The translations under genes were made by a program, and so were the position numbers. Positions 13,645 through 53,210 of a stretch of DNA of 64,000 bases are shown here, piece by piece. The notes under the pieces are model-generated. The model was not told the DNA's origin. It worked only from the letters and a program-made list of their open reading frames with translations, and did no database searches. The stretch comes from a virus: IMG/VR virus record IMGVR_UViG_3300027710_000023; one strand, 5' to 3'. Every line of letters starts with the position of its first letter. The stretch's first letter is position 1.

Positions 13645-13670
13645 GCAGGACACACAAAAGGTAAGTTAAA

Positions 13671-14018: not shown

Positions 14019-14034
14019 TCAATAGGTTTAAAAA

Positions 14035-14062: not shown

Positions 14063-14074
14063 CGGAGAAATAAA

Positions 14075-15244: not shown

Positions 15245-15255
15245 GGTGTTAAATC

Positions 15256-16692: not shown

Positions 16693-16710
16693 TAAGTGAT
16701 TTACTCTTAA

Positions 16711-16738
16711 GCCCATCCCAGTGATGGGCTTTTTTCTC
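16711..16738 (+). terminator. rho-independent terminator after the capsid gene
   Basis: gcccatc ccagt gatgggc followed by tttttt. Confidence 0.7.
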
Positions 16739-16759
16739 TAAACAAAGGTAACATCAAAA

Positions 16760-17326: not shown

Positions 17327-17328
17327 TT

Positions 17329-18174: not shown

Positions 18175-18221
18175 ACAAACATAATTACGGAGAAGGGAGC
18201 TAAAGGCTCCCTTATTACATT

Positions 18222-20297: not shown

Positions 20298-20300
20298 AAA

Positions 20301-22270: not shown

Positions 22271-22349
22271 TTGACACTTCATAAAAACAAAGCTAATTTG
22301 TAATTACTGCGACGGCAGTATTGCTCGACATAGGATCTCCCAATTTCAG

Positions 22350-22381
22350 GCACCACTATGGTTTTAGTGGTGCTTTTTTTA
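22350..22381 (+). terminator. rho-independent terminator upstream of the giant gene
   Basis: gcaccact atggtttt agtggtgc followed by ttttttt. Confidence 0.6.
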
Positions 22382-22407
22382 TTGTTGTTTTATACTGGAT
22401 TTATCTG

Positions 22408-22417
22408 CCCAGCTGGG
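22408..22417. promoter_or_regulatory. perfect 10-bp palindrome cccagctggg about 20 bp upstream of the giant gene start, with a tatact -10-like hexamer at 22391
   Basis: Seen directly. Sits between the terminator and the AGGTGA RBS. Confidence 0.3.
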
Positions 22418-22436
22418 TAACATCGCAGGTGAAACA

Positions 22437-25400
22437 ATGGAAAACAACACTCCTCAAACCGGAGAAGAGTTGCGCCAACTGTTATTGACAGAAGGTAATA
22501 CTCCTACCCGTGAATCAAAAGTTGTTATTGGTTCTCAAACCAAACAACAACAACTTCAAAACACTACTAACAAACAAATCAGTGTTAGTAACGCCTCCAC
22601 TAATAAACAAATTAAATTAAAACAAGAAACTGATCCTACTGTACCAGTTAATACGGATTTAGTTTCTTATGTTGATTTTGCAAAGTCTTTTCCTGAAGGA
22701 ACATCATTAATAGATATTGATGTTGAATACTTACGTAATCAACGTGCTACTAATGAAAGAAAACAAGCTGAAATTAATCAAAACTATGAACGTAAACGTG
22801 ATCGTAGTGTTAGTGAGATTGCTTCAGATACTGGACTAAGTTTAGCTAAGAATGCTTCTTTAATTGGTGAAGCGGCTTTAGGCTTTGCTGATTTAGCTGG
22901 TTCTGGTGCTACAGATAACTTTGGTAATAAATTAAACCGAGCTATGGGTGCTGTGCTTGGTAAAGACACTGCTATTCCTAAAGCAGAAGATTTAGACAAA
23001 CAAATGTCTACCAAAGTACAAGCTCAACAAAAAAATATTCAAGATCGTGTTGCTGCTGTTAAGAGAGCAAATGAGACTGCTACAGCTGCTTTAGGTGATA
23101 AAGCTACTTGGTGGGATACAGCTAGTTCTGTTGGTTCAGAATTGAGTGAGAACTTAGTAGCATTAGTTGATAACCCATCTGCTTTAGCTGATGTTGCTCT
23201 TTCATCCGCTTTAGCTTTTACAGTACCTGCTGCTGTGTCAAAAGGTTTAACAAAAGCTGCAATTAAGAATGCTAAGCCTGAAGATATTGCTGAACTGATT
23301 GCTTCAGGCAAATTAGATAAGTTAGGTGAAGCCGGTGCAGTGATTGGTACTGCTGGACTGGAAGGTTTCTCACAAGCTTATTCTGAGAAAGAAAAAGTAC
23401 TGGAAACTGATCCAAGTGCATTACGTGAAACTTCTCCTAAGTTCAGAGAGTTAGAAGATAAGTATGGTACAGATAAAGCAAAACAAATGATTGCTGATTC
23501 TGTATTTCAATCTAACTTAGGATTAACTGCTGTATTAGCTGGTGTAGCAAGTAAAGTTACTGGTGCTGCTAAACTAGAGAAAGATTTATTTGTTGGTTCA
23601 GATACTTTAACTGCAATTGGCAAAGAAGCATTAGAAGAATCATTACAGTCAGCATCTAGTAATACAGTAGCTAACTTAACTGAAAAGACTTATGTAGATA
23701 AGAACCAGACATTAACAGAGAACTTAGGTTCAGCTGTTGCTACTGGATTAGCTGGTGCTGTAGTAAGTACCGCTGCTCTAAGTGGTACTGCTAATGCTGG
23801 TTCTGTATTAGCTGATAAAGTTGATAAGGGTTTAGCCAAAGTACAAGACCAAGCTACTAAGTTAGCTAATGCTCAACAAATTAATACTGAAGTAATGGAA
23901 GCAGCTACAACAGGTAACTTTGATAAATTAACTTCTAATACTAATTTTAGTATGGAAGAAAAAATCAATATGTTACTTAGTGATGATGTTATAGGTAAAG
24001 TACCAGTAGAACAGCAAGCTAAGATTGCTGAATTTGCTGGAAATTACTATGCTTCATTAGAAGCAGAAGATAAAGATAAATTATCTACTGAACAACAAGA
24101 GTTATCTCAGACAACTGAGTTAGTTAAAAATAAAATAGTTAAAGATCAGATTGATCCTATTATTGGTGATTTAGAAAATATTGATGATGAGAAAGAAGGA
24201 ACTATTGTTCGTGCTTTAGGCTCTTCACCTAATTCATTTACACAAGATCAATTAATTCAATTGGCTCCAGTAGTTTCTGAAAGTACTCGTAGTATTGTTG
24301 ATGCTCAAATAGAAGCTAATAAAGCTATTGAAGAAGTGGAAGCTATTCCACGTAAAGCAACACAACAAGTTAATCAGGATGTAATTAAAGGTGGTAAAGG
24401 CTTTTTAGGTTTAAATGATTATCGTAGACGCTTTGAAGCAGCTATTGGCACAGGTAATGTAGAAGCTGCAACTAAAGCAGCAGATATGTTAGCTAACCTT
24501 GCTACATTGCAAGCTGGTAAAGCAGCTGACATGACAGCATTGATGAAACTTCATAATAGTGAAGGTAATTCACAAAGATACCAAGAAGCCACTAAGAACT
24601 ACCAAACTAAATACAATTTGAAACCAACCGATTCTATTCATCGTGGTTCAGATAAATCAGGTATGGTCAGCCTCGTTGTAAGCGAAGCTAAGGCATTAAA
24701 CAAAGCTCATAAGGTGATGGCAGCGGTATTGGGCCACCAGTCTGGTAAGCCAGTACAGGCGCTTAAAGCACCTAAAGCTACTGTGATCCCTGAAGCTGTA
24801 AAAGAGCCTGTAGCGGTTGCTAAGCCACAGCCGGGCATTCCTATGGGTGAACCAAAAGAAGCTTCTGTAGCTACTCCGGTGCCTGCTCCTGTTGAGGAAG
24901 CTAAGCCAGTTGCCAGCAGCGAAGCTGCGACAGCAACGGAGGCGAAAGCTGACGAAACAACAGAACCAGTAAAGAAAGAATTATCTGAGGCTGAAGAGTA
25001 CGCAGATAGTTTTAGTAATGAAACTAAACCAGAAAAACCAACTACACCGCCTATTCATATTAGTATGAAAGAACGTGAAGATAGACAAAGAGAAGTCAAT
25101 AAAAAGAAAAAACGTTTACAGAAGAAGTTAGAACAGAAAGAAGAAGCACTTAAGAAAGCAGAAGAACGTAAAAATGAAATACGTGATCTGGTTAACAAAG
25201 ATGTAGTACAACCAGTTAATGAAGCTATTAAAGCTACTGGTAATTATGGTAATAAAACAAAATTACGTGATTCATTAGTTAAATTTGGTAATGATGTATT
25301 TACTGCATTAAAAACCAAAGGTATTGCTGAAGCGCGTAAACGTGTAGGTAATTATGCTCGTGGTGCCAAGGATGCATTAAATCGTACTGTTGATATGATA

Positions 25401-28400
25401 GAAACAGATTCTGATTATGTAGCTGGAGCTAATGCAGTTAAAAAAGTATTTGCTTTCAAAGCTAACAAATCAATAATCACTAATAAGATTTATGATAATG
25501 GTATTGCTCGTTTCTTTAATACAGTAGATAAAAATACTTTGTTTAATACTACAGGTAATTTAATTGAAGCTATTCAAGAACGTTCAGATGAGTTTGGTGT
25601 ACAAAGTAACTCAAGCCAAGAAGTATTAGATAATTTTGTAGATTTCCATAAAAAATTTAAAGCAAGTGTAGAGAAGTTATTTAAAGCTCCTTATACAGAA
25701 AAAGCAATGGTTGTTAATAATAACTTTATGGGTTATTTCACTAATGCTGAAGGTAAGTTAGATGATGCTATGGTTACTGCTATGGCAGGTGTAGCTTATA
25801 ACTATATGACCGAATCTGCTTCTGACTTAATAGATAACGACGATGATGCTATTCGTAATATCTTAAACATGGAAGATGAAGAAGAAGTATCACCACAAAT
25901 ACGTAATGCTATGCGTTATGTAGGTATTACTTTAAATGTAGTAGCTGAATCAATGGGTGATCAGTTAGTTAGTTCTATTGGTTTAAAATATAAAACCAAT
26001 ATCTCTGAAGCAGAAGAAGCAACAATGAGTGCTTCATTAGGTACGTTTATTGTATCTATGCTTGAAGATGCTGGCTTAATGAAATTAACAAGCTATGGTC
26101 GTGATGCTTATTTAGAAATGGGTTTTGATGAAGCTACTATAGATAAATTCTTACCTGAAAAGTTAAGTGGTTATTTACAAGTACATTATATCCGCCCAGT
26201 AACACAAATGTGGACAGCTACTGATGAAGCTACAGGTAAGTCATTTGAGTATGAAGATTTGATTGAATCTGTTGTTAAGTCAAAAGATTTGTTACGTGCT
26301 GAGAAAGATGATCCTGATAATATGATTGAAGGTTTTAAACCAGTTATTAATAACATCTTTGACATTGAGCCATTAGATAAAGAACCTTTACTTGTTCAAC
26401 CTAAAGAACAAGGTAAGAAAGTTAAACGTAGTCGTCAATCTCAATCAGTAAAACAGAACCAAGCTATTAATAAGATGAGTCAAGAACCTTGGCAATTAGC
26501 TGATACTTTTGAATCATATAACAAGTTATCTGTTGAAGCTAAACAAGCTATTGCAGGCTTTGCTACTGAAGAAGAGATTGCTCATGCTCATGTGAGTAAA
26601 CGTGAAACTATGGCAGCAAATAACAAGAGTATCACTCGTGTTATTAAAAAGTTTGATGACTTTGTTAAGAATGCTGATGGTAAAGATTTCTACTTACCTG
26701 TAGAGGTATGGAAGAACTTACGTATGGGTTATAAGAGCAGTACTATTAATCCACAGACTAATAAAATGATTCGTCGTTTAATTGGTTTGAAGAATGGTAA
26801 TAAGACTGTTGATTTAACTAATGATGCTCATATTAAGACTTTCCGTATGGCATTAATGGAAGCATTCGATATTAAACTGAAATGGGAAAACATTCAGAAT
26901 GATGATGCTTTAAATGCTAAGTTAACTATCCCAGAAGTTAAAGCAGCTGTTGATATGCTTGTTGCTGGTAATATGAGTGAACAGGTATTAGTTAATGCTG
27001 TGAAGAAGCTTGGTACTAATTATCATGCTTATCATGGTTTGATTGCTTATGCTAAATCAGTAAACAACAAAGTGTTTGAAACAGATCTGTTATTTGAATC
27101 AGATGGTGTCGCTAACGGTGTAGCAATTAGTTTATGGCAGTTTGCTGGTGCAAGAACTAAAGAACAGTTTAAACAAGCAATGCAACGTACAGGTGTGTAT
27201 GAAAATAATGAATATGGCTCATATTTAGAATACCAAGCACAACAAGGTAACATGGATTCATACCAAGTACTTGCTAGTCGATGGGGTGCTGCCGTAAATG
27301 AGTTAAAAGGCTATATCAGTAAATCTGATATTGAGTACACTACTTTGTTTGCTAAGTTTAAAACTGAGAAAGGTACAGCTAAGAAATTAGGTTATTTAAT
27401 TAATTTCTTTGGTTCAAATGAGAAAGCTTTAGAAGGTGTAAATGCAATTACATCTTTAGTAGGTGATTTGACTAATACATTAGGTGAAGTTGAAAAGCTT
27501 GGTCGTGATATGGCTAAGTCTCCTACAATGACATCTATTTATAATGCCGGCTTAGATTCTATTTTAGATAAAGTATCTGATGGTATTATTGAAAGAATGT
27601 ACGATCAATTAGAAAATGATGTTAATAAAGGAACTAATAACAAAGAACGTATCGTTAAAGCTTTAAACGTATTGTTTAATGCTAACTTTGATATGGATAG
27701 TCCATTAGAATGGCAACTGTCAAATATTAAAGATAAATACACAATTACTACAATGGAAGGTAAGCAAATTAAAGTAACTGCTGAAGAAGGCTTAAAGCAT
27801 GTTATTGCTATGGTGTATGGCCCTACATTAGATAATGCTATGTATTCTGTGTATGGTAGATTGCTTGATAATCGTCAAACAGCAAACCAAGCTATTACTT
27901 ATGCTTTCCGTGTGTTTAAAGAAATTTATGACATTGAAGAGAAAAATAAGTTAGCTGAGCTGGGTGTTAGTAGTTTATCTAAAGATCAACGTGATGAATT
28001 AATTAATCAACTCAAACCATACTGGCCTGTACTTGCTACTCCTACTTCTAAAGATAACAGTGAAGGTATTCTGTTATTTAAAGAGAAGAAGCGCAAAGGT
28101 TATAAAACTGATGCAAAAGCTAAAGCATTTGCTGTAGTACAAGAGTACGCAGGTAAAATTGGTAGTAACGGTAATAAGCAACGTACTGTCAACGCTAGTG
28201 CTATTGCTTTAGAAGAACCGGGTGCTAGTGGTATTCCTACTGCTGTTCAGATGTTGGATGCTCATACTATGTTTGGTGCATTGTCTGAAGTAGTTGGCTT
28301 GAACGTACATGATGCTATTGGCTCAACTATTGCAGATGCTGATAATAATACCACAGCAATAAACAAAGCTTATAACCAAATGGTTATGGGTAATTATAAC

Positions 28401-31400
28401 ATTGAGACTTCTGTAGAGTTAATGTTAGATAATGCAATTAAAGCAGCACAAGCATATGGTATTGAAGATAAATTAAACAGAATGACAGATAGATATGATC
28501 AAACACTTAATCCAACTGAAGTAAAAGATCAGATTGAATTAAATATTGAAATGTCTAATAAGTTACGTTCATCTTTAAAAGTTAGTACCATATCTCAATA
28601 TGATAAACCTAATGGTGCTTATTTAACTGGTAATAGTGTTATTGATACTGATGAAGTAGTTGTTGAAGAAGTTGTACAAGATGTGTTTAAGGAAATGAAA
28701 GATTTGTTAGGTTCTCAGGATGTAACTAAAGGAACTGAAGACTTTTCACAAGCACAGACTTATAACGCAACTGTTGATAACTCAATGGATATTTTTAATC
28801 AACTGGAAACATTAGGTAGTGTAGAAGACAATACAGAACATAAAGAACACTTACGTTCTGTTTTATCAGAAATGATTAATAAAGTATTACAACCTACGTT
28901 AGTTGTGTTAGGTACTGTAGATGAAGCTACTCGTGGTAGATTCATGCAGGATGTTAATGGTAAACGCCAAATTGAAATTGCTACAAGTGTTGGTGATTTT
29001 GAGTACGGTTTATCTGCACAAGAAGTTTATGTACATGAAATGATCCATAACATTATTGGACATGCTTTATCATCAGGTGCTGTAGAAGTAAAACGTATTA
29101 CTGCTATGTTCAACGCAGTAAAAGATTTAGTGGATAGTGGTGACATTACTTATAAAGATTTTTTATCTTTGGATCAAGCTGGTAATACTATCAGTAATCC
29201 AACACAAGAACAGATTGATGATGCTACAGATAGATTAAATTATATCTTTAATAACACAACGGTACGTGTACGTAAGATTACTGATCCCGCTACAGGAATT
29301 GTTACTACTACTAAGACAAATAGTGCGTTAGAAGAGTTTGTTGCCTTTGGTACTACTAATGCTGCCTTTATGAAAGCATTAAATAAACCAAATGTACTTA
29401 TGGCTCTTAAAACTAAATTAAGACCAGAACACAGTAAAACTAAATCAAATACATGGTTAATCCAGAAATTTGACAGCATAGTTAATGCATTACTGGACAT
29501 GATTCAGTTTGCTATGGATAAGCTGACTGACCGGGTGTTGAACATTGCCGGGAAGAAAGTAGATGCTCAGTTGGCAACGCTTGTATCGGCTCTGGCTGGC
29601 GTTCAGGTGAAACATCAAAGCAAAGTGATGCAAGGTATAGATGCGGTGTTAGCGTTCAGCACAGCCTCAACCGCTAAGCTTAAAGCATGGGTAGTAGCAC
29701 CGATTGTTGCAGCTGCTAATAGCTCACGATTCAAAAACAGCAAGAATACTGTTGTTCGTGTGACTACTAAGGCAATTGCTGTTGCTGGTAACAGTAAAGC
29801 AGGTACTTGGGCTAAAGCGTTACGTCAAACACGTAGTCGTTTAAATATGACCCAAGATAACTTTGCTTTGTCGTTAGCTCAGGAAATTGCAGGTGTTACA
29901 TCTAAAAATAAACACTGGCATAAGTTATTACGTTTATCTAATAAACATATTGACCAATTACGTAAGCATGTAGCAACTACTGTTAAGAATACTCTTAATG
30001 AGCAGTACAGCTACACTTTAAATAAAGAAGAGAAAGCTGCTATTACTAAAGCAGTATTAAAAACTGATTTAACTGCGTTACTGGAATATGGTTACACTTA
30101 TGATGAAATCTATGATTTATTAAAAGATGAATCCAAGTTAACTAAAGTAATTGAAGATAAACAAGCTTTAATTAAGAAAACGTATACTCAAGGTGTTGGT
30201 CGTTGGGTATTAGACCAAAGTACTGGTTTATCTAATAAGATGATCACTGGAACTGAGATTCGTGGTAATCAAGGATTGAATGCTTATCAAATTGCTAACG
30301 GCTTTGGTAATCCAATTATCAAGAAACGTATGCAAGATAATAAGGTAGACAACAACCAATTAGAAAAAGATGTTGATGAATTAGTTACTTTAATGGCTCT
30401 GAACTTAGTTGATTCTAAAGTTAAAGCTAACGTGGTATCTATTTTTGATAAAGAAGTAGCTTCTGGTAAAACACTAAACAACAATGGTTTGAGTTTTACT
30501 ATGGAACATCACCGTAACTACAAAGTAGATTCACGTAATGAAAACTTTGATGGTAATCCAGCATTGATGCGTAAAGGGTATGTCAAAGAAATTACTGATC
30601 CTAATATTGCAGTACAAGTAGTTGACGTAACTGATTTTGTTAAAATTGCAGAGTTAGTTAAAGCAGGATACAAACCAACTCAACAATATATCTATGGTGA
30701 TGTGCGTGATCCTAATGGATCAAAAATGGAGATATACCGTAACACTGCTGCTAAGTTAGCAACTAACTCTGCTGGTATTGTATCCCTGACTTCTAAACAA
30801 AGCATGGGTACAGATATACTGGATGGTTTTGTTAACAAAGATACTATGAGTACTAATATTGGTTTGGATGCTTATTTAAATATCCAAGCAATTAATAAAG
30901 ATATGGAAATTGCAAGTAACGTAGGTATGACTGCATCAGGTAATACTAAGACTGTATTGTTAACACCTGTATTTAACTTAGATGGTGATGTAGTAAATTA
31001 CCGGTATGAAATGTCAGATGCTAATAAAGAAAAGTTGTTAAAAAGACACAATTCTTTTGATGACATTTTATCTGGTATGACTGCACAAATTAAAGATAAA
31101 GCTAATACTAAAACAATTAACAGTGTTGTAGTTGAGACTTTAAAGCAAGAGTTTGATGCAGAGTTTGTTAAGTCACCTAAAGAGTTTGTGTTAGTTGGTA
31201 TTAACAGTACTGATCCAGCAATGAAAGAGTTATGGTTTACTCTTCCAGAAGAAATGCGTATTGAAGCTACTAAGTTATTTGGTACTAAGGGATTATATGT
31301 TAAGAAGAAAGACTTACGTTTAATCTTTGGTTTCCGTAAGTTTACTGTGGGTGAGTGGGCTGAGAAGCTACAGGAACAAAGTAAAGTACAGAACAAGATG

Positions 31401-32357
31401 CTTAACTACGCAGCAAGACATGTACTTGAGTTGTTACAGAAACCTTTAGTACATCAAGGTGAAGAAGTATGGCAAGAAATTGTACGTATGGCTAAAGATA
31501 CTATTGTTGTTAAGACAGGTGCTACTTTAGTTGGTAACGTTATCTCTAACTTTGCAGTACTGATGACTGAAGGTGTTTCTTTCAGTGATATTCTTAAGTA
31601 CCACTCTATTGCATGGAAAGGTGCTAATAAATACCAGAAAGATAAAAACAAGTTGGATAGTTTGAAGTTGGAATTGGAAAACAAAAATAATCTGTCTGTT
31701 ACTGAAGCTGCCAAGATGAAACGTGAGATTGCTTTACTGGAAAACAGTATTAGCACAAACCCAGTTTATTCATTGGTTCAAGAAGGTATTTATCAGACGA
31801 TTGTTGAAGATGTGGACATGGATGAGGATACATTCAGTTATCAGAGTAAATTGGAAAAGGTAACTTATCCACTTACATCTAAAATACCTGATGTTATCAA
31901 AGACATGAGTAAGATTCTGTTTGTAACACATGATACGCAACTTTATAAAGCAATGCGTAATGCTACACAGATTAGTGACTTTGTTGCTCGGTTTACGTTG
32001 CATCAACACAACTTAACCAAACAAAAAATGAGTGAGGAAGATTCTATCAATAATATTGTAGAAACATTTGTTAACTATGACTTACCAACACATAAGAGTA
32101 TTCAGTATCTGAATGACATGGGTTTAGTTATGTTTAGTAAGTTCTTTATACGTATTCAGAAAGTTATCCTAAGACAGTTAACAGAAAGAACTGGTAACGT
32201 GTTGTCATTGTTCTTAGTGCAACAAATCTTAGGAATAAACATTGCTGATATATTTGATGGTGCAGTTGTGATGCCAAATACGATTGAAGCTAAGTTTGCT
32301 GATCCATTGGATCATGTAGACACTTTATTTGGGATTCACCTTTTTAACAACATCTGA
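22437..32357 (+). CDS. virion-encapsidated RNA polymerase (N4 vRNAP-like giant protein, 3306 aa)
   Basis: Single 9.9-kb ORF. The central region carries T7-like RNAP motif-C-like VHDAIGS and LFESDGVANG. Size and position match the N4 gp50 class. Confidence 0.7.
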   Translation: MENNTPQTGEELRQLLLTEGNTPTRESKVVIGSQTKQQQLQNTTNKQISVSNASTNKQIKLKQETDPTVPVNTDLVSYVDFAKSFPEGTSLIDIDVEYLRNQRATNERKQAEINQNYERKRDRSVSEIASDTGLSLAKNASLIGEAALGFADLAGSGATDNFGNKLNRAMGAVLGKDTAIPKAEDLDKQMSTKVQAQQKNIQDRVAAVKRANETATAALGDKATWWDTASSVGSELSENLVALVDNPSALADVALSSALAFTVPAAVSKGLTKAAIKNAKPEDIAELIASGKLDKLGEAGAVIGTAGLEGFSQAYSEKEKVLETDPSALRETSPKFRELEDKYGTDKAKQMIADSVFQSNLGLTAVLAGVASKVTGAAKLEKDLFVGSDTLTAIGKEALEESLQSASSNTVANLTEKTYVDKNQTLTENLGSAVATGLAGAVVSTAALSGTANAGSVLADKVDKGLAKVQDQATKLANAQQINTEVMEAATTGNFDKLTSNTNFSMEEKINMLLSDDVIGKVPVEQQAKIAEFAGNYYASLEAEDKDKLSTEQQELSQTTELVKNKIVKDQIDPIIGDLENIDDEKEGTIVRALGSSPNSFTQDQLIQLAPVVSESTRSIVDAQIEANKAIEEVEAIPRKATQQVNQDVIKGGKGFLGLNDYRRRFEAAIGTGNVEAATKAADMLANLATLQAGKAADMTALMKLHNSEGNSQRYQEATKNYQTKYNLKPTDSIHRGSDKSGMVSLVVSEAKALNKAHKVMAAVLGHQSGKPVQALKAPKATVIPEAVKEPVAVAKPQPGIPMGEPKEASVATPVPAPVEEAKPVASSEAATATEAKADETTEPVKKELSEAEEYADSFSNETKPEKPTTPPIHISMKEREDRQREVNKKKKRLQKKLEQKEEALKKAEERKNEIRDLVNKDVVQPVNEAIKATGNYGNKTKLRDSLVKFGNDVFTALKTKGIAEARKRVGNYARGAKDALNRTVDMIETDSDYVAGANAVKKVFAFKANKSIITNKIYDNGIARFFNTVDKNTLFNTTGNLIEAIQERSDEFGVQSNSSQEVLDNFVDFHKKFKASVEKLFKAPYTEKAMVVNNNFMGYFTNAEGKLDDAMVTAMAGVAYNYMTESASDLIDNDDDAIRNILNMEDEEEVSPQIRNAMRYVGITLNVVAESMGDQLVSSIGLKYKTNISEAEEATMSASLGTFIVSMLEDAGLMKLTSYGRDAYLEMGFDEATIDKFLPEKLSGYLQVHYIRPVTQMWTATDEATGKSFEYEDLIESVVKSKDLLRAEKDDPDNMIEGFKPVINNIFDIEPLDKEPLLVQPKEQGKKVKRSRQSQSVKQNQAINKMSQEPWQLADTFESYNKLSVEAKQAIAGFATEEEIAHAHVSKRETMAANNKSITRVIKKFDDFVKNADGKDFYLPVEVWKNLRMGYKSSTINPQTNKMIRRLIGLKNGNKTVDLTNDAHIKTFRMALMEAFDIKLKWENIQNDDALNAKLTIPEVKAAVDMLVAGNMSEQVLVNAVKKLGTNYHAYHGLIAYAKSVNNKVFETDLLFESDGVANGVAISLWQFAGARTKEQFKQAMQRTGVYENNEYGSYLEYQAQQGNMDSYQVLASRWGAAVNELKGYISKSDIEYTTLFAKFKTEKGTAKKLGYLINFFGSNEKALEGVNAITSLVGDLTNTLGEVEKLGRDMAKSPTMTSIYNAGLDSILDKVSDGIIERMYDQLENDVNKGTNNKERIVKALNVLFNANFDMDSPLEWQLSNIKDKYTITTMEGKQIKVTAEEGLKHVIAMVYGPTLDNAMYSVYGRLLDNRQTANQAITYAFRVFKEIYDIEEKNKLAELGVSSLSKDQRDELINQLKPYWPVLATPTSKDNSEGILLFKEKKRKGYKTDAKAKAFAVVQEYAGKIGSNGNKQRTVNASAIALEEPGASGIPTAVQMLDAHTMFGALSEVVGLNVHDAIGSTIADADNNTTAINKAYNQMVMGNYNIETSVELMLDNAIKAAQAYGIEDKLNRMTDRYDQTLNPTEVKDQIELNIEMSNKLRSSLKVSTISQYDKPNGAYLTGNSVIDTDEVVVEEVVQDVFKEMKDLLGSQDVTKGTEDFSQAQTYNATVDNSMDIFNQLETLGSVEDNTEHKEHLRSVLSEMINKVLQPTLVVLGTVDEATRGRFMQDVNGKRQIEIATSVGDFEYGLSAQEVYVHEMIHNIIGHALSSGAVEVKRITAMFNAVKDLVDSGDITYKDFLSLDQAGNTISNPTQEQIDDATDRLNYIFNNTTVRVRKITDPATGIVTTTKTNSALEEFVAFGTTNAAFMKALNKPNVLMALKTKLRPEHSKTKSNTWLIQKFDSIVNALLDMIQFAMDKLTDRVLNIAGKKVDAQLATLVSALAGVQVKHQSKVMQGIDAVLAFSTASTAKLKAWVVAPIVAAANSSRFKNSKNTVVRVTTKAIAVAGNSKAGTWAKALRQTRSRLNMTQDNFALSLAQEIAGVTSKNKHWHKLLRLSNKHIDQLRKHVATTVKNTLNEQYSYTLNKEEKAAITKAVLKTDLTALLEYGYTYDEIYDLLKDESKLTKVIEDKQALIKKTYTQGVGRWVLDQSTGLSNKMITGTEIRGNQGLNAYQIANGFGNPIIKKRMQDNKVDNNQLEKDVDELVTLMALNLVDSKVKANVVSIFDKEVASGKTLNNNGLSFTMEHHRNYKVDSRNENFDGNPALMRKGYVKEITDPNIAVQVVDVTDFVKIAELVKAGYKPTQQYIYGDVRDPNGSKMEIYRNTAAKLATNSAGIVSLTSKQSMGTDILDGFVNKDTMSTNIGLDAYLNIQAINKDMEIASNVGMTASGNTKTVLLTPVFNLDGDVVNYRYEMSDANKEKLLKRHNSFDDILSGMTAQIKDKANTKTINSVVVETLKQEFDAEFVKSPKEFVLVGINSTDPAMKELWFTLPEEMRIEATKLFGTKGLYVKKKDLRLIFGFRKFTVGEWAEKLQEQSKVQNKMLNYAARHVLELLQKPLVHQGEEVWQEIVRMAKDTIVVKTGATLVGNVISNFAVLMTEGVSFSDILKYHSIAWKGANKYQKDKNKLDSLKLELENKNNLSVTEAAKMKREIALLENSISTNPVYSLVQEGIYQTIVEDVDMDEDTFSYQSKLEKVTYPLTSKIPDVIKDMSKILFVTHDTQLYKAMRNATQISDFVARFTLHQHNLTKQKMSEEDSINNIVETFVNYDLPTHKSIQYLNDMGLVMFSKFFIRIQKVILRQLTERTGNVLSLFLVQQILGINIADIFDGAVVMPNTIEAKFADPLDHVDTLFGIHLFNNI

Positions 32358-40054: not shown

Positions 40055-40984
40055 TTAAAATTTAGCTTTATCGTGATTAGGAATCAATTGACGATTCTGA
40101 ATCCAACCACAGAAGTTACCAGACCATAAATCACAATTGCGATCCATATGTGTTACACCTTCCGGCCAATTACTTGTTTCTGTGAAAGAACCGATAAATT
40201 TAGGAATAGGTGTAGCTTGATGTTCTGATGGAGAAGCATGTACTTTTTTACCAGTAAACAACTTATCAATTACTGTTTCTGTCTTTTCATCTGAGTAATC
40301 TTCTTTACGGAAAGAAGTTTGAGCACAAATCGACATACTAAGTTCAATTGCTTCTTTAACTGTAAGTACTGCATCTGTTTCAGGATGGCGGTAGATAATT
40401 TCAGCTGTATCAGGATCAACTTCACGTTTGATGAATGGTACGTGCCACTCACCTTCAGCCAACTGTAAGTATTTATTGTTGGTTCGAGCTTCCAACATTA
40501 ACTTAGCTAACTGTTCAATTTCAGGTTGAGCAGCTACGTCTACACGTAACCAATCCCAGTTTTCCCACTCAGTTGATGTAAGTACAACACGAATGTTTTG
40601 AAATGGTTCTAAATAACGTGCAGCATGTTGTTTATGTACATTTAAGCCACCATCTTTAGATGGTAAACCTAATTGTAACACACCTTGTTTAACAGCTTTC
40701 CACATTGCAGATTTAACAAAGTTAATTTCTTCTAATTCATCAACATCAGTAATTAAATCACCTGACATACCGGGTTGATTACTTGTCCACATAAATACAG
40801 CTGGGTTATCTTCAATTTGTTGAATAGCTGCTTTAATTGGTACAGCTCGTGAACTTGAAGAGTTTTTACTAAATACTCGATGAGTAAGTAGCTGTGCGTG
40901 AATACTGCGTGGGTATTCTAGTACTAACGTGCAAATCTTTACATCATTAGCAATAGAACCTTGGATAAATTCAACTTTAATCAT
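40055..40984 (-). CDS. thyX: flavin-dependent thymidylate synthase
   Basis: ThyX signature LTHRVFSKNSSSSRAVP (RHRxxSxNxxSxR pattern). 309 aa. Confidence 0.7.
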   Translation of the reverse strand: MIKVEFIQGSIANDVKICTLVLEYPRSIHAQLLTHRVFSKNSSSSRAVPIKAAIQQIEDNPAVFMWTSNQPGMSGDLITDVDELEEINFVKSAMWKAVKQGVLQLGLPSKDGGLNVHKQHAARYLEPFQNIRVVLTSTEWENWDWLRVDVAAQPEIEQLAKLMLEARTNNKYLQLAEGEWHVPFIKREVDPDTAEIIYRHPETDAVLTVKEAIELSMSICAQTSFRKEDYSDEKTETVIDKLFTGKKVHASPSEHQATPIPKFIGSFTETSNWPEGVTHMDRNCDLWSGNFCGWIQNRQLIPNHDKAKF

Positions 40985-43599
40985 TTAAACTTTTTCCCAT
41001 GTTCTGACATAAGTGTTTTTAAGGTTTGATGGTCTGCATGTGGAGGTAATGCTAATTTGTGCTCCCATGACGGGTAGAACAACTCAACATCACCACCTAT
41101 CTTGACTTCATCATGTTCAATCTCAGGTAAGCCTTGCCAAGCCATATGATGCGGTAAGCGATCATTATGGTATTGCACCACATCTATATTACTACGCAAC
41201 AGGAAGTACTGAGCGTCGTGTATATGACATGATGGGAGTATCTGAGTGCGGTATGGTGAATGCCAATACTCGGTCTGGTATGATACAGCAGCCCTGTTAT
41301 TGAGCAAGCCATAGCTCTGCCCAAGCGCGTTACCAGCGGTTCTACCTTCGGCCTTAGCTTCGTATGGCATAGTAGACGAACCCCAGATGCATTGAGCAAT
41401 GAGGGGTGTACGCACCTTCATACCAAAAGCTACTGTTACATAACCATCAATAGAAGCTTGTTGTAACTTATCTTGAACCCACTTATCAGATACTTCGTAC
41501 ATGATATGGTAGTTAGCTTCAATAGATTTAGCTAATTCTTTAGGTAATCCACAGTTGTTCATTAAACCAAAACAAGTACCACCATAAGTAAGCAGAAAAG
41601 TAGGTTCTTTACTGTCTTGACGATACTTCTTGTATTCTGGATGATCAGCAATGCTATTAATTGAATCAACAGAGTTAGGATCAATATCTGGCATTTTTTC
41701 TGAGTAATAATAATAAGCACGTAAACAGTGACCATCATAACCATCAGTATATACTTTTAGTTTATTTGGATCTTTAGTTGTCAGTGCTGATATACGATCT
41801 TCCAGTGAAGCAAAGTCAGCACCAGAAAATATCCATCCCGGTGGAGCTTTGAAGCAAGACTTAATTAACTTGGCATAGATTGAACCAGTAGAAGGAATAT
41901 TCTGTAAATTTGGTTCAGAACTACTCAAACGACCTGATACAGTACCACCTAAATTAAAGTTACCGTGTATCCACCACCAACCATCTTCATGTTGAATACT
42001 CTTAGTTAAGAAAGCATTCAAGAAGTTATCAAGAATGATTGATACATCAGCCAATGCTATTAGTTTTTCAAATAACAGCTTATCGTTAGGAGACTTAGCT
42101 AAATGGATCAGTTTCTTGAGGGTATCGTTACCTGTTGCTGGTTGTCCACCATCTGTCTTGTCGATAACAGCATAGCCGAGCTGTGTGTATATAAGACGTT
42201 GTAACTGAGTGCTAGAATTGGGATTAAAAGTAACATAATCAAAATAACTAAGCGGTTCTGATTTTTTCTTCCACGCTTCATTACATGAAACGTATTCTTC
42301 ATATCTGAGCATTTCTTGAAAGGAAAGCACAGAATTGAGATTAAAAATATCAATAAGAATGTTATTTCTAATTGTGTTAAGTTCATTGTTTACTTCCCGT
42401 ACCTTTTCAATATCTAAAGGCATTCCTACCAATTCCATCTGTATAATTACACGGACAGATGGTAAGAACACACTGTAGTAAGGTCTAGCTTGTTGTTCTT
42501 CCTGAAGTATGGGATACCACTTATCATACAAGTAGAAAGTGGATAAACCATCGATTAAGTTGTAATTGAGTATTTTTTCAGATGGATGTACAGAAATATC
42601 TGTTACATCAATACCGTAGTTACCAGCAAACTCAAATGCAGCAGCTTTAAGAGATAACTCGTTTTTAACTGTATTATTGGTGCAGAGATAATAAATAAGT
42701 TTAGTATCTTGCATGTTACGTGTAAGTGTTTCAATACCATGAATCATTTCCTCATATGCATTGAATTTACCTTCCATGAATAACCAGAAGACAAGTACTT
42801 TAATATCGTAACAAGAGTTGTGATAAACAGGAATACCCCGGTATTTTAAGAAGAATTGTTTAAGAATGTTTCTTCTTTTTAAATTAGGAATTAATCTGTG
42901 ATATTTACCGTCAATTGGACTATCGTAGTCAGCTAGGTCAACAGTAAAGGCCATGCCTTCGTGTTTATCCCAACAGAATGTAATAGTTGCAATACCTGAT
43001 TCATAAAAGCGTAATGAGTAAGCTTCTATGTCTATTGCTAATACTTTAGCAGATTTAAGTAACTCTTTAAGTTTAGCGATGATTTGTTCATCTGAAGTAG
43101 GATAATAAGCTACTTTGATGATGTCATGAAAAATAGGTGTATTTTGGTAATGACCTATGATTGCTTGTAAAGAGTAATCTAGTTTTTCTTGAAGTAATGG
43201 ATTGTAGTACAGTGCTTGATATGACACACCGAATACAACCTTGATATGTTCATAAGACGGTACGGAACAGTTATGTACATAGCCATACTCATGTTTAACA
43301 TTTTTTAGTCCAGCTAACTCTTTAAAGTAAGCTGAATCAGCAACGTATAATATTTCAATACCTAATCTAGCCAGTTTAGGAACCAACTCATTTAAGTATT
43401 CGCGGATTAACGTAATTGGTGCTTTACCAGCACTGTTGTACGCAAGAGAGACACCAATGCAATCAGCTTTTTCTAACACCTTGGAGAGTGGATCAATATA
43501 TGCTGACTGCATTGGATTTACTTGTAATGCTTCACGTTTCATCAGAAACGCTGCCTTATATTGCTTTGAAGGATTCGTATCAAATAAAATGTGATGCAT
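40981..43599 (-). CDS. DNA polymerase, family A
   Basis: RLSSSEPNLQNIP (motif A region of Pol I). GADFASLEDRISA (DYSQIELR equivalent). IHDAQYF (motif C). 872 aa. Confidence 0.8.
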   Translation of the reverse strand: MHHILFDTNPSKQYKAAFLMKREALQVNPMQSAYIDPLSKVLEKADCIGVSLAYNSAGKAPITLIREYLNELVPKLARLGIEILYVADSAYFKELAGLKNVKHEYGYVHNCSVPSYEHIKVVFGVSYQALYYNPLLQEKLDYSLQAIIGHYQNTPIFHDIIKVAYYPTSDEQIIAKLKELLKSAKVLAIDIEAYSLRFYESGIATITFCWDKHEGMAFTVDLADYDSPIDGKYHRLIPNLKRRNILKQFFLKYRGIPVYHNSCYDIKVLVFWLFMEGKFNAYEEMIHGIETLTRNMQDTKLIYYLCTNNTVKNELSLKAAAFEFAGNYGIDVTDISVHPSEKILNYNLIDGLSTFYLYDKWYPILQEEQQARPYYSVFLPSVRVIIQMELVGMPLDIEKVREVNNELNTIRNNILIDIFNLNSVLSFQEMLRYEEYVSCNEAWKKKSEPLSYFDYVTFNPNSSTQLQRLIYTQLGYAVIDKTDGGQPATGNDTLKKLIHLAKSPNDKLLFEKLIALADVSIILDNFLNAFLTKSIQHEDGWWWIHGNFNLGGTVSGRLSSSEPNLQNIPSTGSIYAKLIKSCFKAPPGWIFSGADFASLEDRISALTTKDPNKLKVYTDGYDGHCLRAYYYYSEKMPDIDPNSVDSINSIADHPEYKKYRQDSKEPTFLLTYGGTCFGLMNNCGLPKELAKSIEANYHIMYEVSDKWVQDKLQQASIDGYVTVAFGMKVRTPLIAQCIWGSSTMPYEAKAEGRTAGNALGQSYGLLNNRAAVSYQTEYWHSPYRTQILPSCHIHDAQYFLLRSNIDVVQYHNDRLPHHMAWQGLPEIEHDEVKIGGDVELFYPSWEHKLALPPHADHQTLKTLMSEHGKKFK

Positions 43600-49148: not shown

Positions 49149-49235
49149 TTGGGATTTTTCCTTTATTCAGTGGTACACTTTTATCAATTGCAGATGGCGG
49201 AGCCATCCTAACTAATTATTATTTGGAGCATTGAT

Positions 49236-49895
49236 ATGACTAAAGTAGAATATTTAGAATCTCAACGTGGTCAAAGCTACACTTTCATAGTTAATAATCA
49301 ACCAACAGTTGATACTATTGGTTCAATTACAGCAGAACATGTTCAAGAGATGACTACTATTCTTGCAGAAGGTTTAAGACTGGAAGTAGATAGTTATGTT
49401 GCTACAGAAGAGACTAAACAACTTTATAGCGCAGTAAAAGTAGCATTAAGTCCTGAACATATTTACAGTCCAGATTTTAAGATCAATTTTAGTTTACCTA
49501 ATATCTGGGGAACATTTCAGCTTGCAGTACAAGCAGGTATTATTTTACAAAGTTCTGCTGATAAACTAGTTAATCTTGCTACATATAAGAAAAATGTATT
49601 AAAAGTAACAAGACAAGATTGTATTGATTATTTTAGTTTAGATTGGGTAAACCCAACACCAATTAATATTGGCTCAAGTCGTCAAATTGAAATTAAATTA
49701 AATCAACAAAGTGTTGAAAGCACCTACTTAATTTTTGAAATGTCTAGAGATGGTGTTAATTGGGTTCCTGCTGGTAGTGTACACGGGCTTTACAAGTCTG
49801 GGGTATACTTAGGTAGTATTCCACCTTATGGTAGCTCACGTTTCATCCGGTGGCGTGGAGAATACGATTTAGATGTGACCATAGAAGGTATCTAA
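49236..49895 (+). CDS. hypothetical protein (first gene of the plus-strand island)
   Basis: 219 aa with GGAG RBS. Confidence 0.4.
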   Translation: MTKVEYLESQRGQSYTFIVNNQPTVDTIGSITAEHVQEMTTILAEGLRLEVDSYVATEETKQLYSAVKVALSPEHIYSPDFKINFSLPNIWGTFQLAVQAGIILQSSADKLVNLATYKKNVLKVTRQDCIDYFSLDWVNPTPINIGSSRQIEIKLNQQSVESTYLIFEMSRDGVNWVPAGSVHGLYKSGVYLGSIPPYGSSRFIRWRGEYDLDVTIEGI

Positions 49896-49896
49896 T

Positions 49897-51444
49897 ATGA
49901 CTTGGGCGCTAAAGTTCAATCCCGAAGGTAACGCTGGTAATGATGTTGTTACACTAGGTACTGCGCTAGTTCCGGGAATAGGTGTTGGTACTTCAAATTG
50001 GGCTATCGAATTTCGTATGAAGTTAGATGCTCTGCCTGCGTCTGGTAACTGGTATATTCTTGGTTCCGGCTCTGCATCACAAAATGCAGGTTTTGTTATA
50101 CGTTCTGCGTCTGGATCTGGTGTATTAGCTTTAGTTAGTGCAGGTACACATATCTCAGCAGCAGACTCTCCTGTTGGATTTTTAATAGCTGATGGGGAGT
50201 TTCATACATATCGAATTGTACGTGTTGCTGGCACATCTATTAGTTTTTACAGAGATGGCGCTACAATACAGTTAAATAAATCATGGGCTACTACAAGTAA
50301 CTTTACACTTAGTCTTAACCGTTTTGGTCGAGGTAGTATCAGCGGTACTGGTGGTGTTACTCCAATGGAGTTGGAGTGGTTTGACGCTACCGAATTTGAT
50401 ACTACCAATGGTCAGCGATGGGAATCAGATTTAGCAAATGGTTCTGGTACTGTTTGGCCTACAGTTAGTGGTAATAACCAAGGTACATTGGTTAACTTTA
50501 CTGCTGGTGCTGAATGGGTATTTTATGGTAGTACACCTGAGTTTACTGCTGTTGTAAGTGCAACATATGGATCATATACAGCTACAGTTGCAGCAGATAG
50601 CACAAGACCAACCAATTCACTATCTATTGCTGCACAGTATGCAAGTTATATTGCAGCAGTAAACAGTACCAATACAAAACCAGTTAAGACAATTAGTATT
50701 AATACACAATACCCAGCTTATACAGTATCTGTAAATGCTACAGGTGGTGTACCTGCTTATAATGTGAGTATTAATTCTAATTACCCTATTTATGTAGGTA
50801 GTGTTGTAGGAACAAATACTAAACCTGTTAAAACAAGTCAGATAAGTGCTACATACGCTACGTATACAGCAAATGCTACTTGTAGTAACACAAAACCAAT
50901 TAAAACAATAAGTATTAGTAGTCAGTATCCTGTTTTTAGTGTTAGTGTTGTAGCCACAAAACAGGCTAGTGGGCATACAGCTAGTATATTAGCAACATAC
51001 CCTAATTACACTGGTTCAGTTAATAGTACAAACACTAAACCAATTAAAACAGTAATAGTAACAGGAATATATCCTAGTTATATAGTAAATGTAGTTGGTA
51101 CAAATAACAAACCTGTTAAAACAGTTATTGTATCTACTACTTATAGTAGTTATACAGCAAGTGTAGTTGCTAACGTTGTTAGAAATAATGTTATATCTAT
51201 AAATAGTACTTATCCAAGATATACAGCTAATGTTGTATGTGGACAAGAAATACCAGATAAAACATTAACTATTAATTCAACATATCCAAAGTATATTGGT
51301 ATAGTTGTATTAGGTGATTTTGTGAATATGCCTTACCGTGGTGGTAAGGGAGCACATTTGGTTATCTCATCTGGTTCCAGAGAGATTAAAATTAAAGACA
51401 AAAGTCGTAATGTTAAATGGAGAGTAGAAAATGCCCGGTTATAA
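49897..51444 (+). CDS. lectin-like (concanavalin A/LamG-like) protein with about ten tandem 22-aa repeats
   Basis: The N-terminal about 200 aa are beta-sandwich-like (WAIEFRMKLDA...FHTYRIVRV...FYRDGA). Residues about 221-460 are degenerate repeats of the form YxxYTAxVxxTNTKPVKTxxI. Confidence 0.5.
   Translation: MTWALKFNPEGNAGNDVVTLGTALVPGIGVGTSNWAIEFRMKLDALPASGNWYILGSGSASQNAGFVIRSASGSGVLALVSAGTHISAADSPVGFLIADGEFHTYRIVRVAGTSISFYRDGATIQLNKSWATTSNFTLSLNRFGRGSISGTGGVTPMELEWFDATEFDTTNGQRWESDLANGSGTVWPTVSGNNQGTLVNFTAGAEWVFYGSTPEFTAVVSATYGSYTATVAADSTRPTNSLSIAAQYASYIAAVNSTNTKPVKTISINTQYPAYTVSVNATGGVPAYNVSINSNYPIYVGSVVGTNTKPVKTSQISATYATYTANATCSNTKPIKTISISSQYPVFSVSVVATKQASGHTASILATYPNYTGSVNSTNTKPIKTVIVTGIYPSYIVNVVGTNNKPVKTVIVSTTYSSYTASVVANVVRNNVISINSTYPRYTANVVCGQEIPDKTLTINSTYPKYIGIVVLGDFVNMPYRGGKGAHLVISSGSREIKIKDKSRNVKWRVENARL
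50557..51277 (+). repeat. degenerate tandem repeat array, about 66-bp unit, about 10 copies, coding
   Basis: Repeated aaaccagttaagacaat / acaaaaccaattaaaacaat cores seen in the DNA. Matches the protein repeats. Confidence 0.5.
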
Positions 51445-51781
51445 CTTAGCAATGCGTAATGCTGTTAATGATGCAATTGCAGCACAAGTAGGCGGTGGTA
51501 CTAACACATTAGAAGTACTTACAGCAGCTAACGCTGTATTGGCAACACATAGTAATATTCCATCATTTCCGGCATCAGTTAATGGTAGTACTACTTTGAC
51601 TACTGTTGCAGATGATGTAATTGATGCAAACGGCACTGCAACTAAAGTACGTGTTACTAAAGGTGGTTCAGTAAATGAATATGGCCCCGGTGAAGTAACG
51701 TTTGGTGATCCTGCTTATGTTGTTGGTGGTGTGTCAAAAGTAACTAGTATTACTATTGCATTCCCTAGTGGTGGATTATGA
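51431..51781 (+). CDS. hypothetical beta-rich protein
   Basis: 116-aa ORF overlapping its neighbours by 14 and 4 nt. Confidence 0.4.
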   Translation: MPGYNLAMRNAVNDAIAAQVGGGTNTLEVLTAANAVLATHSNIPSFPASVNGSTTLTTVADDVIDANGTATKVRVTKGGSVNEYGPGEVTFGDPAYVVGGVSKVTSITIAFPSGGL

Positions 51782-52104
51782 GTTGTAATACAGCTGTTAT
51801 TCGTCCTTATCAATGGGATAAACCCATTAAGCAAGGTAAAGTTGATCTATATTCTATTGATTTAACTGATTGGCTTGGAGAAGATGAATTAGGAACAGTT
51901 GTAGCAACATCAACAAATAATTTAGTAACTATTGTTGGTTCAGGAAAAGCAGCAAACGAGGCAGGGCAAGCTAACAAGTGTGCTACTGTCACTGTAGCAG
52001 GTATAACGCCCGGACTTGATGAGATACGCTTTAGCGTAGCCACAGCAAGCACTGGGCGTACAGACGGGATGTCAATACAACTGATTGTATCCAAGTATCC
52101 ATAA
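51778..52104 (+). CDS. hypothetical beta-rich protein
   Basis: 108-aa ORF, the last in the plus-strand island. Confidence 0.4.
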   Translation: MSCNTAVIRPYQWDKPIKQGKVDLYSIDLTDWLGEDELGTVVATSTNNLVTIVGSGKAANEAGQANKCATVTVAGITPGLDEIRFSVATASTGRTDGMSIQLIVSKYP

Positions 52105-52129
52105 GCCCCTTACGGGGCTTACTTTATTT
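52103..52129 (+). terminator. rho-independent terminator at the convergent junction
   Basis: aagcccc ttac ggggctt followed by actttattt. Confidence 0.55.
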
Positions 52130-53002
52130 CACTTCAATAAAAGGCAATGGGCCGGAATTACCGGTGTAAACTGGTAACTTACCATCCCACTTATCAATAG
52201 CATTTAATTGAACAACTGATGGGTTTTCACGAATAGCTTTACCTTTTAAGGCAATTGCTTCGGCTTCGGCACTTGCTAAAGTTAATTTAGCGTCTGCTTC
52301 GCCTTTTGCTTGTTCACGAGCTTTATCAGCTTCAGCTTTAACTTGTGCTACTTCATTTTCACGTTGTAGTGTTTTTTGTGTAGCGGTAATTTTAGCATTG
52401 ATTGCTTCAGTAACTTGTTGTGGTACACCGATATCACCAAGTAAAAATACTTGTTCTACATTAATACCAGCTGGTTTAAGTTTAGCTGTAACAATGTCAT
52501 TTACATCTTTAAGTAACTGTACTTTACCTTCACCATAGATGTATTCTACTTTGTATTTAGCAGCAGCTGCAATAAATGCATCTTGTACGATACGACGTAC
52601 ATAGCTGTCACTAATTTCTACAATACCTTTACGAAATTTCTGAAAGATGTCACTTACTTTAGTTGGATCAACTGCAAAAGCAATACCGACATCAGCCCAT
52701 ACTTTCATGCCTTCAGATGTTTGAAAGCGGATAGCTTCGTCTGTAGAACTATCTGCACAGCCTTTACCTTCAACTGGTGTAGCTGTCCATTGACAGTTTT
52801 GAGTAAAAGTAGGAAATACATACAGTTCTTCATTAACACCGATCCAGTAACGTCCCGGAGTTAATTCTTGTGTAGATACACCTTTTTCTGAACCAAGTAA
52901 GTTAACTTTAATACCTACATGGCCTGATTCTACACGACTACAAGCAGTAGCAGCTAAAGCAATTACACCTAGAAGTACAGCACGTAACAATTTATTCTTC
53001 AT
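52124..53002 (-). CDS. SPFH/band-7 (stomatin/HflC-like) lipoprotein
   Basis: N-terminal MKNKLLRAVLLGVIALAATAC signal with lipobox-like TAC. SPFH body with C-terminal Ala/Glu/Lys-rich coiled coil. Confidence 0.6.
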   Translation of the reverse strand: MKNKLLRAVLLGVIALAATACSRVESGHVGIKVNLLGSEKGVSTQELTPGRYWIGVNEELYVFPTFTQNCQWTATPVEGKGCADSSTDEAIRFQTSEGMKVWADVGIAFAVDPTKVSDIFQKFRKGIVEISDSYVRRIVQDAFIAAAAKYKVEYIYGEGKVQLLKDVNDIVTAKLKPAGINVEQVFLLGDIGVPQQVTEAINAKITATQKTLQRENEVAQVKAEADKAREQAKGEADAKLTLASAEAEAIALKGKAIRENPSVVQLNAIDKWDGKLPVYTGNSGPLPFIEVK

Positions 53003-53210
53003 GGTTTTTCTCTTCTGTTGATGGATCAATTATTTTTGGAAACATTACTTTTACTGCAATGTGAATTAAACACAGACAGTAAGCAATCATTAATACAAAT
53101 CCTGAAAGTACCATAATGGTATCTTTTTCAGAAATTAAGTAGGGTAAAACTACACCAAACATAGCAATGGTTGATATAGCAATTAGTAAAGCTAAATATA
53201 CATATTTCAT
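52992..53210 (-). CDS. small two-TM membrane protein
   Basis: 72-aa hydrophobic ORF. Overlaps the SPFH start by 11 nt. Confidence 0.35.
   Translation of the reverse strand: MKYVYLALLIAISTIAMFGVVLPYLISEKDTIMVLSGFVLMIAYCLCLIHIAVKVMFPKIIDPSTEEKNHEE

Follow-up and report, generated by a model that had tools for sequence, protein, structure and literature searches.

A conserved four-gene island in an N4-like podophage may encode an accessory fibre with an exchangeable lectin-fold head

Introduction

What is a block of four genes on the late-gene strand doing among the oppositely transcribed replication and early genes of an N4-like podophage? The question is raised by an island at 49236..52104 (+) in a 64,000-nucleotide stretch of viral DNA (IMG/VR record IMGVR_UViG_3300027710_000023; the whole stretch is called the window here), which lies between the minus-strand replication genes and the minus-strand early genes. 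A preliminary description of this DNA had seen in the island an extra adhesin or depolymerase-type module, or a surface-decoration cassette, that was acquired separately.

Our analysis indicates that the island, whose genes are numbered 1 to 4 in the direction of transcription, very probably encodes some virion fibre or appendage module. The two genes at its downstream end are related, one by sequence family and the other by fold, to proteins of phage necks and fibres, and the largest gene joins a lectin-fold head to a strictly periodic repeat region and a conserved tail. Fibres built as beads on a rope have been seen only recently, in phages GP4, Sf14 and Bas63. By analogy, the island could specify a collar-rope-bead accessory fibre on the plan of GP4 Fiber I and the Bas63/Sf14 neck, here with a lectin-fold head, a specific model to which we give roughly even chances.

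Results

Relatives of genes 4 and 3

Judged from its sequence, gene 4 probably belongs to the family of gp77, the immunoglobulin-like (Ig-like) fibre-tail adaptor of podophage GP4. The window protein matches Pfam PF23148 (“Podophage GP4 fiber-tail adaptor protein gp77”) with 20.3 bits (E 8.3e-4; the gathering cutoff is 27 bits), all eight members of the gene-4 family match it with a best E of 6.5e-7, and one homolog (P0033) has a precomputed PF23148 annotation. The gene-4 family profile also singles out gp77 among 13 GP4 proteins (hhalign E 1.9e-4). At 108 residues, and 91-108 in relatives, the protein has the length of a single Ig-like domain (~90-110 residues), and four of the eight family members give weak fn3 matches. 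Deposited phages with a stand-alone gp77 homolog are podophages of the GP4/Bcep22 type, siphophages of mycobacteria and a few more, and no N4-like phage is among them. Gene 4 showed no sequence link to the main fibre of the window.

The relatives of gene 3 are visible by structure. Sequence searches for this gene (Pfam, PHROGs, BLAST and a profile against PDB) gave nothing; none of eight family members matches Pfam PF23140 (gp80/whisker) at E values up to 10, and hhalign of the family against gp80 returns a probability of 0.1%. The AlphaFold2 (AF2) model, with a predicted local distance difference test score (pLDDT) of 87.9, consists of a helix (residues 4-18) and then a small beta-sandwich, and its top Foldseek matches are chains of ~107 residues in the Sf14 neck and Bas63 connector reconstructions. 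With two methods, the best structural matches were the Sf14/Bas63 neck chains, a 139-residue chain of the phage 7-7-1 fibre complex and GP4 gp80. The modelled fold of gene 3 is that of the gp80/whisker proteins, an N-terminal helix plus a small incomplete sandwich within ~110-140 residues. The fibres of phage 7-7-1 bear small homodimeric “garland” proteins (PMC12796354), and the matching chain is probably one of these. The two small downstream genes had been described as beta-rich, which fits both the helix-and-sandwich model of gene 3 and the Ig-like family match of gene 4.

Architecture of gene 2

An alignment of gene 2 with its 21 metagenomic homologs, none of which is named, resolves three modules, namely a head that differs among homologs, the repeats, and a C-terminal tail that is nearly invariant. 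When AF2 was run on the 21-sequence alignment, residues 1-211 were modelled as a beta-sandwich with pLDDT of ~85. Foldseek matches of this head include neurexin LNS, laminin G, CBM40 and BoNT Hc (E 1.4e-5 to 1e-3, template modelling score to target 0.5-0.6), and GH16 jelly-rolls are one of many others. The concanavalin-A/LamG-like N-terminal domain of the preliminary description is therefore right at the level of fold, although gene 2 has no Pfam LamG/ConA family match and its family profile finds no match among PDB sequences. The depolymerase-type role fared less well, since neither Pfam nor PHROGs assigns a hydrolase, lyase, esterase or other enzymatic family to any of the four proteins, and the matches of the head, to binding modules and to GH16 alike, are at the fold level only.

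The head appears to be an exchangeable part. In the alignment it is of the LamG type in most homologs, another domain in four and longer in one (other domains replace it in P0007, P0013, P0014, P0018 and P0019). Five further proteins have only the head in common and join it to other C-terminal halves (P0015, P0016, P0017, P0020 and P0021); P0015, which is encoded at locus L009 and lacks gene 3 and gene 4 neighbours, P0020 and P0021 have periods of 22 or 20 residues. The alternative head domains received no Pfam assignment, and we did not call them beta-helices or enzymes.

The repeat region consists of 11 tandem units of 24 residues, one spacing being 23, with tyrosine anchors at residues 224, 248 and so on to 463 and a consensus of roughly T-I-S-I-N-S-T-Y-P-x-Y-T-A-S-V-V-x-T-N-T-K-P-V-K. 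Autocorrelation of gene 2 peaks at offset 24 (z = 14), with harmonics at 48 and 72, and secondary peaks at offsets 11 and 13 point to two strand-like halves in each unit. About ten degenerate 22-residue repeats ending in TNTKPVKT had been reported previously; the tandem repeats are real, their number and period are instead those given here, and TNTKP(V/I)K occurs in only 5 of the 11 units, with a variant, TNNKPVK, in a sixth. Tandem Repeats Finder did not detect them in the DNA. When the protein is folded alone, AF2 renders residues 212-515 as a string of beta-hairpins with pLDDT below 50. The number of repeats, whose possible variation had been proposed as a check, does vary among relatives, from 9 to 11 copies, while the period stays constant at 24.

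Downstream of the repeats, the C-terminal tail (RGGKGAHLVISSGSREIKIKDKSRNVKWRVENARL) is nearly invariant in most homologs, and a second tail type is present in P0002, P0003 and P0009. Tail type follows the divergence of gene 3 and of gene 4 (Spearman 0.73 and 0.77, respectively).

Conservation and exchange of the island

The same four-gene island is found, in the same position and orientation, in at least seven related metagenomic contigs (some 57-75 kb). Because it recurs in this way, its sequence distribution marks it as a clade feature and not a private acquisition, which also answers the earlier question of its presence or absence across related phages. The proposal that it was acquired separately is right in part: the island is modular and horizontally exchanged, given that heads are swapped and that a siphophage has the cassette, but a recent gain does not agree with its presence in seven contigs.

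When the island was compared with deposited phages by BLAST, at both the nucleotide and the protein level, nothing was found except one weak gene-2 match, to Alteromonas siphophage vB_AmaS-R9Y3 (OM732337; hereafter R9Y3). No island gene matched PHROGs, profile searches with all four families against PDB sequences found nothing, and the island is absent from the two annotated N4-like phages in which it was sought, pVa5 and S6. Scans of IMG/VR yielded one locus with gene 1 and none with gene 3.

Among eight aligned loci (28 locus pairs), the divergence of repeats, C-terminal tail, gene 3 and gene 4 co-varies, with Spearman coefficients of 0.63-0.88. Head divergence is uncorrelated with the remainder of the island, and gene 1 behaves as its own unit. 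In L008, gene 1 and the head share 85-92% identity with the window, against only 27-49% for its repeats, tail and genes 3 and 4. Because identity falls in this manner, the breakpoint lies exactly at the junction of head and repeats.

A different arrangement is seen in L009, which lacks genes 3 and 4 and has a homolog of gene 1 and a protein with a LamG head where a long same-strand cluster ends. On this 63.6-kb contig, the gene at 10001..11173 fuses the LamG head to a different repeat of ~22 residues (LYxPSVxKxK) and a C-terminal helix. Upstream, at 8766..9152, is a 128-residue protein (phrog_644) that is the top, insignificant match of the gene-3 profile (E 0.077). The two may constitute a second rope/bead pairing, with the 128-residue protein as a weak bead candidate. 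Neither PHROGs nor Pfam typed the context of this locus.

An informative relative is R9Y3, a cultured phage whose cassette gp17-gp14 is annotated as hypothetical. Its homologs of the island genes stand in identical order, with E values of 1.4e-20 for gene 2, 2.4e-9 for gene 3 and 5.5e-10 for gene 4; the gene at the position of gene 1 is barely similar and gives a weak match only. The gene-2 homolog (R16) has a LamG-type head and 12 repeats of 24 residues that are unrelated in sequence to the repeat of the window. In R9Y3 the cassette closes the tail module, following the hub, megatron and tail-fibre genes on the same strand, whereas the island is a separate block on the opposite strand from its neighbours.

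Comparison with solved fibres and collars

The Ralstonia podophage GP4 is among the closest known systems. As far as its structure (PDB 8JOU; Zheng et al., J Mol Biol 2023) is recounted in PMC11445570 and PMC12609058, the adaptor gp77, an Ig-like protein of 93 residues, anchors fibres as a ring of 15 copies that encircles the dodecameric head-to-tail adaptor (PMC11445570), and a separate protein, the rope, holds five dimers of gp80 (PMC12609058). By these accounts GP4 has five dimers on its rope, compared with 11 repeats in gene 2. Several other features set the two apart. Gene 3 lacks a sequence match to the gp80 family, the rope proposed for the island bears a LamG head and a strict 24-residue repeat, unlike that of GP4, and the GP4 genes lie inside the structural module of a phage from a different family, whereas those of the Schitoviridae window form an opposite-strand island. 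We noted a glycine-rich pattern, G.G..I.L, recurring every ~10-12 residues in GP4 gp79 (L014, 8948..9925; 325 residues, annotated as virion-associated); this protein is a candidate for the GP4 rope.

The collar-whisker of the Felixounavirus phages Bas63 and Sf14 (PDB 9MT4, 9C39) offers a second template. The Bas63 whisker monomer consists of an N-terminal helix and an incomplete sandwich, and its dimers wrap the rope “such as beads on a string”; the rope itself is an N-terminal extension of the Ig-like collar protein and completes the whisker sandwiches (PMC12609058). This rope enters the collar in the N-to-C direction, a polarity that agrees with a C-terminal anchor in gene 2. In Bas63, however, rope and collar are one protein and there are only two dimers, whereas in the island they would be encoded by separate genes with the bead gene between them.

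That the neck of a Schitoviridae phage can accept a collar of this kind is shown by Pseudomonas phage DEV, which like the window is N4-like. The N-terminal beta-barrel of its long fibre, gp53, is reported to superimpose on the GP4 adaptor and to form, in 15 copies, a collar on the head-to-tail adaptor (PMC11445570). Unlike the island, DEV has this collar domain fused to a trimeric esterase-bearing fibre and has no separate adaptor, beads or rope.

Gene 1 and the transcription unit

Gene 1 had no Pfam, PHROG or PDB match. Its N-terminal half is probably helical and its C-terminal half is beta-rich. Its family, with 33 representative clusters in a set of 1.84 billion proteins, is small and mosaic, with identities of 23-37% in most relatives and 81-88% in L008/L010, and its gene is always directly upstream of a head-bearing gene, L009 included. 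One apparent relative of 2,542 residues (P0075) was set aside as a bacterial surface protein with Big_2 repeats and a repeat-inflated match. Gene 1 may serve as an assembly factor or as a partner to the head, two roles between which we do not choose.

The four genes are translationally coupled (Table 1): genes 1 and 2 are 1 nt apart, genes 2 and 3 overlap by 14 nt, and genes 3 and 4 overlap in ATGA. Their position on the late-gene strand suggests that they are expressed late. A strong terminator had been claimed for the convergent junction, and the hairpin there has a free energy of -13.5 kcal/mol (z = -4.3; none of 200 shuffles folds equally well), which supports that claim. The stem of 8 bp, 5 of them G-C pairs, occupies 52102..52121 and is followed by CTTTATTT; the hairpin, TAAGCCCC-TTAC-GGGGCTTA, overlaps the stop codon of gene 4 and is followed by CTTTATTTCA.

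Table 1. Features of the four-gene island and its borders (window coordinates).
Feature	Position	Strand	Description
Divergent intergenic region	49149..49235	.	87 bp, between the minus-strand gene starting at 49148 and gene 1
Gene 1	49236..49895	+	219 aa
Gene 2	49897..51444	+	515 aa
Gene 2 head, LamG/ConA-like jelly-roll	49897..50529	+	aa 1-211, AF2 and Foldseek
Gene 2 repeat region	50545..51333	+	aa 217-479, 11 tandem 24-residue units
Gene 2 C-terminal tail	51334..51444	+	aa 480-515 plus stop
Gene 3	51431..51781	+	116 aa
Gene 4	51778..52104	+	108 aa
Intrinsic terminator	52102..52131	+	where gene 4 and the SPFH lipoprotein gene converge

A 13-nt motif, TTCAGTGGTACAC, is located at 49166..49178 in the divergent region. 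The form TTCAGT(A/G)GTACAC, or a near variant, lies upstream in six of the eight aligned loci (the window, L004, L006, L007, L011 and L012). The window has one exact copy, and matches with two mismatches occur at the level of chance; because of the single copy, we rejected the reading as a shared late-promoter element. Read on the other strand, the motif closely precedes the ribosome-binding site of the gene starting at 49148 (minus strand), and from its placement it could serve either transcription unit as a promoter or regulatory site.

Phage and genomic setting

The window is most of the genome of an N4-like podophage (Schitoviridae). The product of an open reading frame (ORF) at 15256..16692 shares ~52% identity with the major capsid proteins of N4-like Vibrio phages, and a 3,306-residue ORF at 22437..32357 is in the expected place of the virion RNA polymerase. 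A late plus-strand block at 1..32357 contains genes for the terminase, a gp67-like virion protein, a 698-residue tail fibre, a 460-residue tail protein, an endolysin, a spanin, a DUF1353 fibre-chaperone-like protein and the portal, and minus-strand replication and early genes occupy the rest of the window. The preliminary description was accurate on both the location and the direction of the island: this main late module, from terminase to virion RNA polymerase, is on the same strand as the island and removed from it, and the four ORFs run against minus-strand genes on both sides. The preliminary description also put the C-termini of the fibres in the fold class of the gene-2 head; the gene-2 profile matched no other ORF in the window.

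On one side the minus-strand neighbour is an SPFH lipoprotein gene (52124..53029), and on the other are small genes followed by those for an AAA-ATPase and a vWFA protein. Their N4 counterparts are gp20 (SPFH lipoprotein), gp24 (ATPase) and gp25 (vWFA). The N4 decoration gene gp17 is in the equivalent neighbourhood, between RNAPII and the gp20 lipoprotein gene, and is encoded on the same strand as its neighbours.

Several other features of the window were noted. The first ~100 residues of the main tail fibre (1938..4034, +) have no detectable relative among deposited phages, and residues 104-131 share ~80% identity with a short motif that Pseudomonas phages have in tail fibres of the P2/phiCTX type. 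A 946-residue late protein (8620..11460, +) has an alanine-zipper-like segment and weak PHROG matches of unknown function, and is encoded where N4-like phages often have an additional component of the tail or fibre. The late module also includes, immediately after the lysis genes, a stand-alone CheY-like receiver domain of 152 residues (7789..8247, +; Pfam PF00072, E 2.6e-20, over the cutoff) that is 33% identical (E 7e-23) to gp12 of R9Y3; the gp12 gene lies two genes downstream of the R9Y3 fibre cassette and adjoins a lysozyme gene. Finally, the family-A DNA polymerase is one ORF of 872 residues in the window (40981..43599) and two ORFs in L004 (1..3849) and L007 (512..3829), the halves in L004 being separated by an HNH endonuclease gene and another small gene.

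Discussion

A collar, a rope and beads

The adhesin-type module suggested in the preliminary description gains support from the lectin-fold head, the location on the late-gene strand and the relation of genes 3 and 4 to proteins of virion structure. On the collar-rope-bead model, gene 4 would form an Ig-like ring around the neck or tail. Gene 2 would act as a single chain, with its C-terminal tail interlocked with this collar, its eleven two-strand repeats extended as the rope and its LamG head at the distal tip. Gene 3 subunits would dimerise and thread onto the rope as beads, whose sandwiches the rope strands would complete. A rope role is proposed for the repeats because a gp77-like gene and a gp80/whisker-like gene adjoin them, and because they are periodic and do not fold alone. 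A physical partnership of these parts is supported by the co-variation of repeats, tail, gene 3 and gene 4, by the breakpoint in L008, and by the cassette of R9Y3 with its 24-residue period. Since each 24-residue unit has two strand-like halves, we guess that there is one bead dimer per repeat, which is speculation. The number of repeats would then set the length of the fibre, and the period may be ruler-like, because 24 residues are kept in R9Y3 without a conserved sequence. The exchangeable head could bind a surface glycan or another host ligand and thereby make the first, reversible contact alongside the ordinary tail fibre. Gene 1 would be a fifth element, linked to head-bearing genes and unexplained by this scheme.

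A number of points weigh against this model. The rope role of the repeats is drawn by analogy only, and two GP4 proteins searched against the PDB as possible ropes, gp78 and gp79, have no match there by sequence. No lectin-type or globular head has been described for the Bas63 rope, so a head on a rope lacks a solved precedent. The structural scores of gene 3 are moderate, and gene 4 of the window scores below the PF23148 gathering cutoff. Co-variation of the repeats, tail, gene 3 and gene 4 could reflect the mere linkage of contiguous, co-inherited segments. A homotrimeric beta-shaft could also look disordered in a monomer prediction and keep a period. As to docking, the main fibre of this phage may already occupy the head-to-tail adaptor, and a collar in a siphophage must attach elsewhere.

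The beta-shaft leads to the alternative that survives best, an unlikely one in our estimation, in which the island specifies a conventional fibre. Gene 2 would be a homotrimer with the repeats as a beta-helical or beta-spiral shaft and its C terminus on a gene-4 ring, and gene 3 would be a decorating dimer of the “garland” kind or an assembly factor. Such a fibre, anchored by its C terminus and headed by its N terminus, would be the reverse of most trimeric tail fibres. Moreover, Pfam searches found no coiled coil, trimerisation module or intramolecular chaperone, and the joint presence of gp77-like and gp80/whisker-like proteins is a signature of rope-type assemblies.

We consider it improbable that the products decorate the capsid or form a head fibre, with the gene-2 tail bound to the capsid lattice and the LamG head pointing outward in a Hoc-like manner. 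The genomic position is suggestive, because N4 encodes gp17, a Hoc-like head decoration protein, near the equivalent site. T4 Hoc, too, has a conserved C-terminal anchor and a variable N-terminal projection, and GP4 Fiber I also lies against the capsid. However, neither hmmsearch nor hhalign matched N4 gp17 with any of the four island family profiles, gene 4 probably falls in a family of neck and tail collars, and the R9Y3 cassette closes a cluster of tail genes. The surface-decoration cassette of the preliminary description, taken as capsid decoration, is disfavoured by the first two of these results.

It is very improbable that the island encodes intracellular or host-surface proteins that, like those of its neighbours, serve superinfection exclusion or envelope modification: the island does lie among non-structural genes and adjoins the SPFH lipoprotein gene, in an area where N4 has exclusion and membrane genes, but inspection of the N-terminal sequences by eye shows neither a signal peptide nor a transmembrane segment, the genes are on the late strand, virion structures contain relatives of the products of genes 3 and 4, and the R9Y3 homologs are in a tail module.

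Implications

What appears new, on our best reading by analogy, is a lectin-fold head fused to a rope and common to a podophage clade and a siphophage. It is conceivable, though on balance doubtful, that the cassette is a portable “molecular-ruler” fibre kit shared by an N4-like podophage and an RcGTA-like siphophage, in which an exchangeable head, a length-setting rope and a universal Ig-like collar are combined. Even if the collar-rope-bead model is wrong, the island would remain a conserved module for an accessory fibre whose head can be swapped, a property relevant to the prediction of host range.

If the collar-rope-bead model is correct, the rope would have a sequence signature, its strict 24-residue period, and genes of marine phages now called hypothetical would gain an annotation. 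The lectin-fold head would point to binding of a host or glycan and not to mere bracing of head and tail, and Alteromonas phage R9Y3 would be a tractable system in culture. N4-like phages, whose attachment to the host is poorly understood, would have a second exchangeable adsorption device, and beads on a rope would extend from a neck ornament to a modular receptor-binding device of programmable length.

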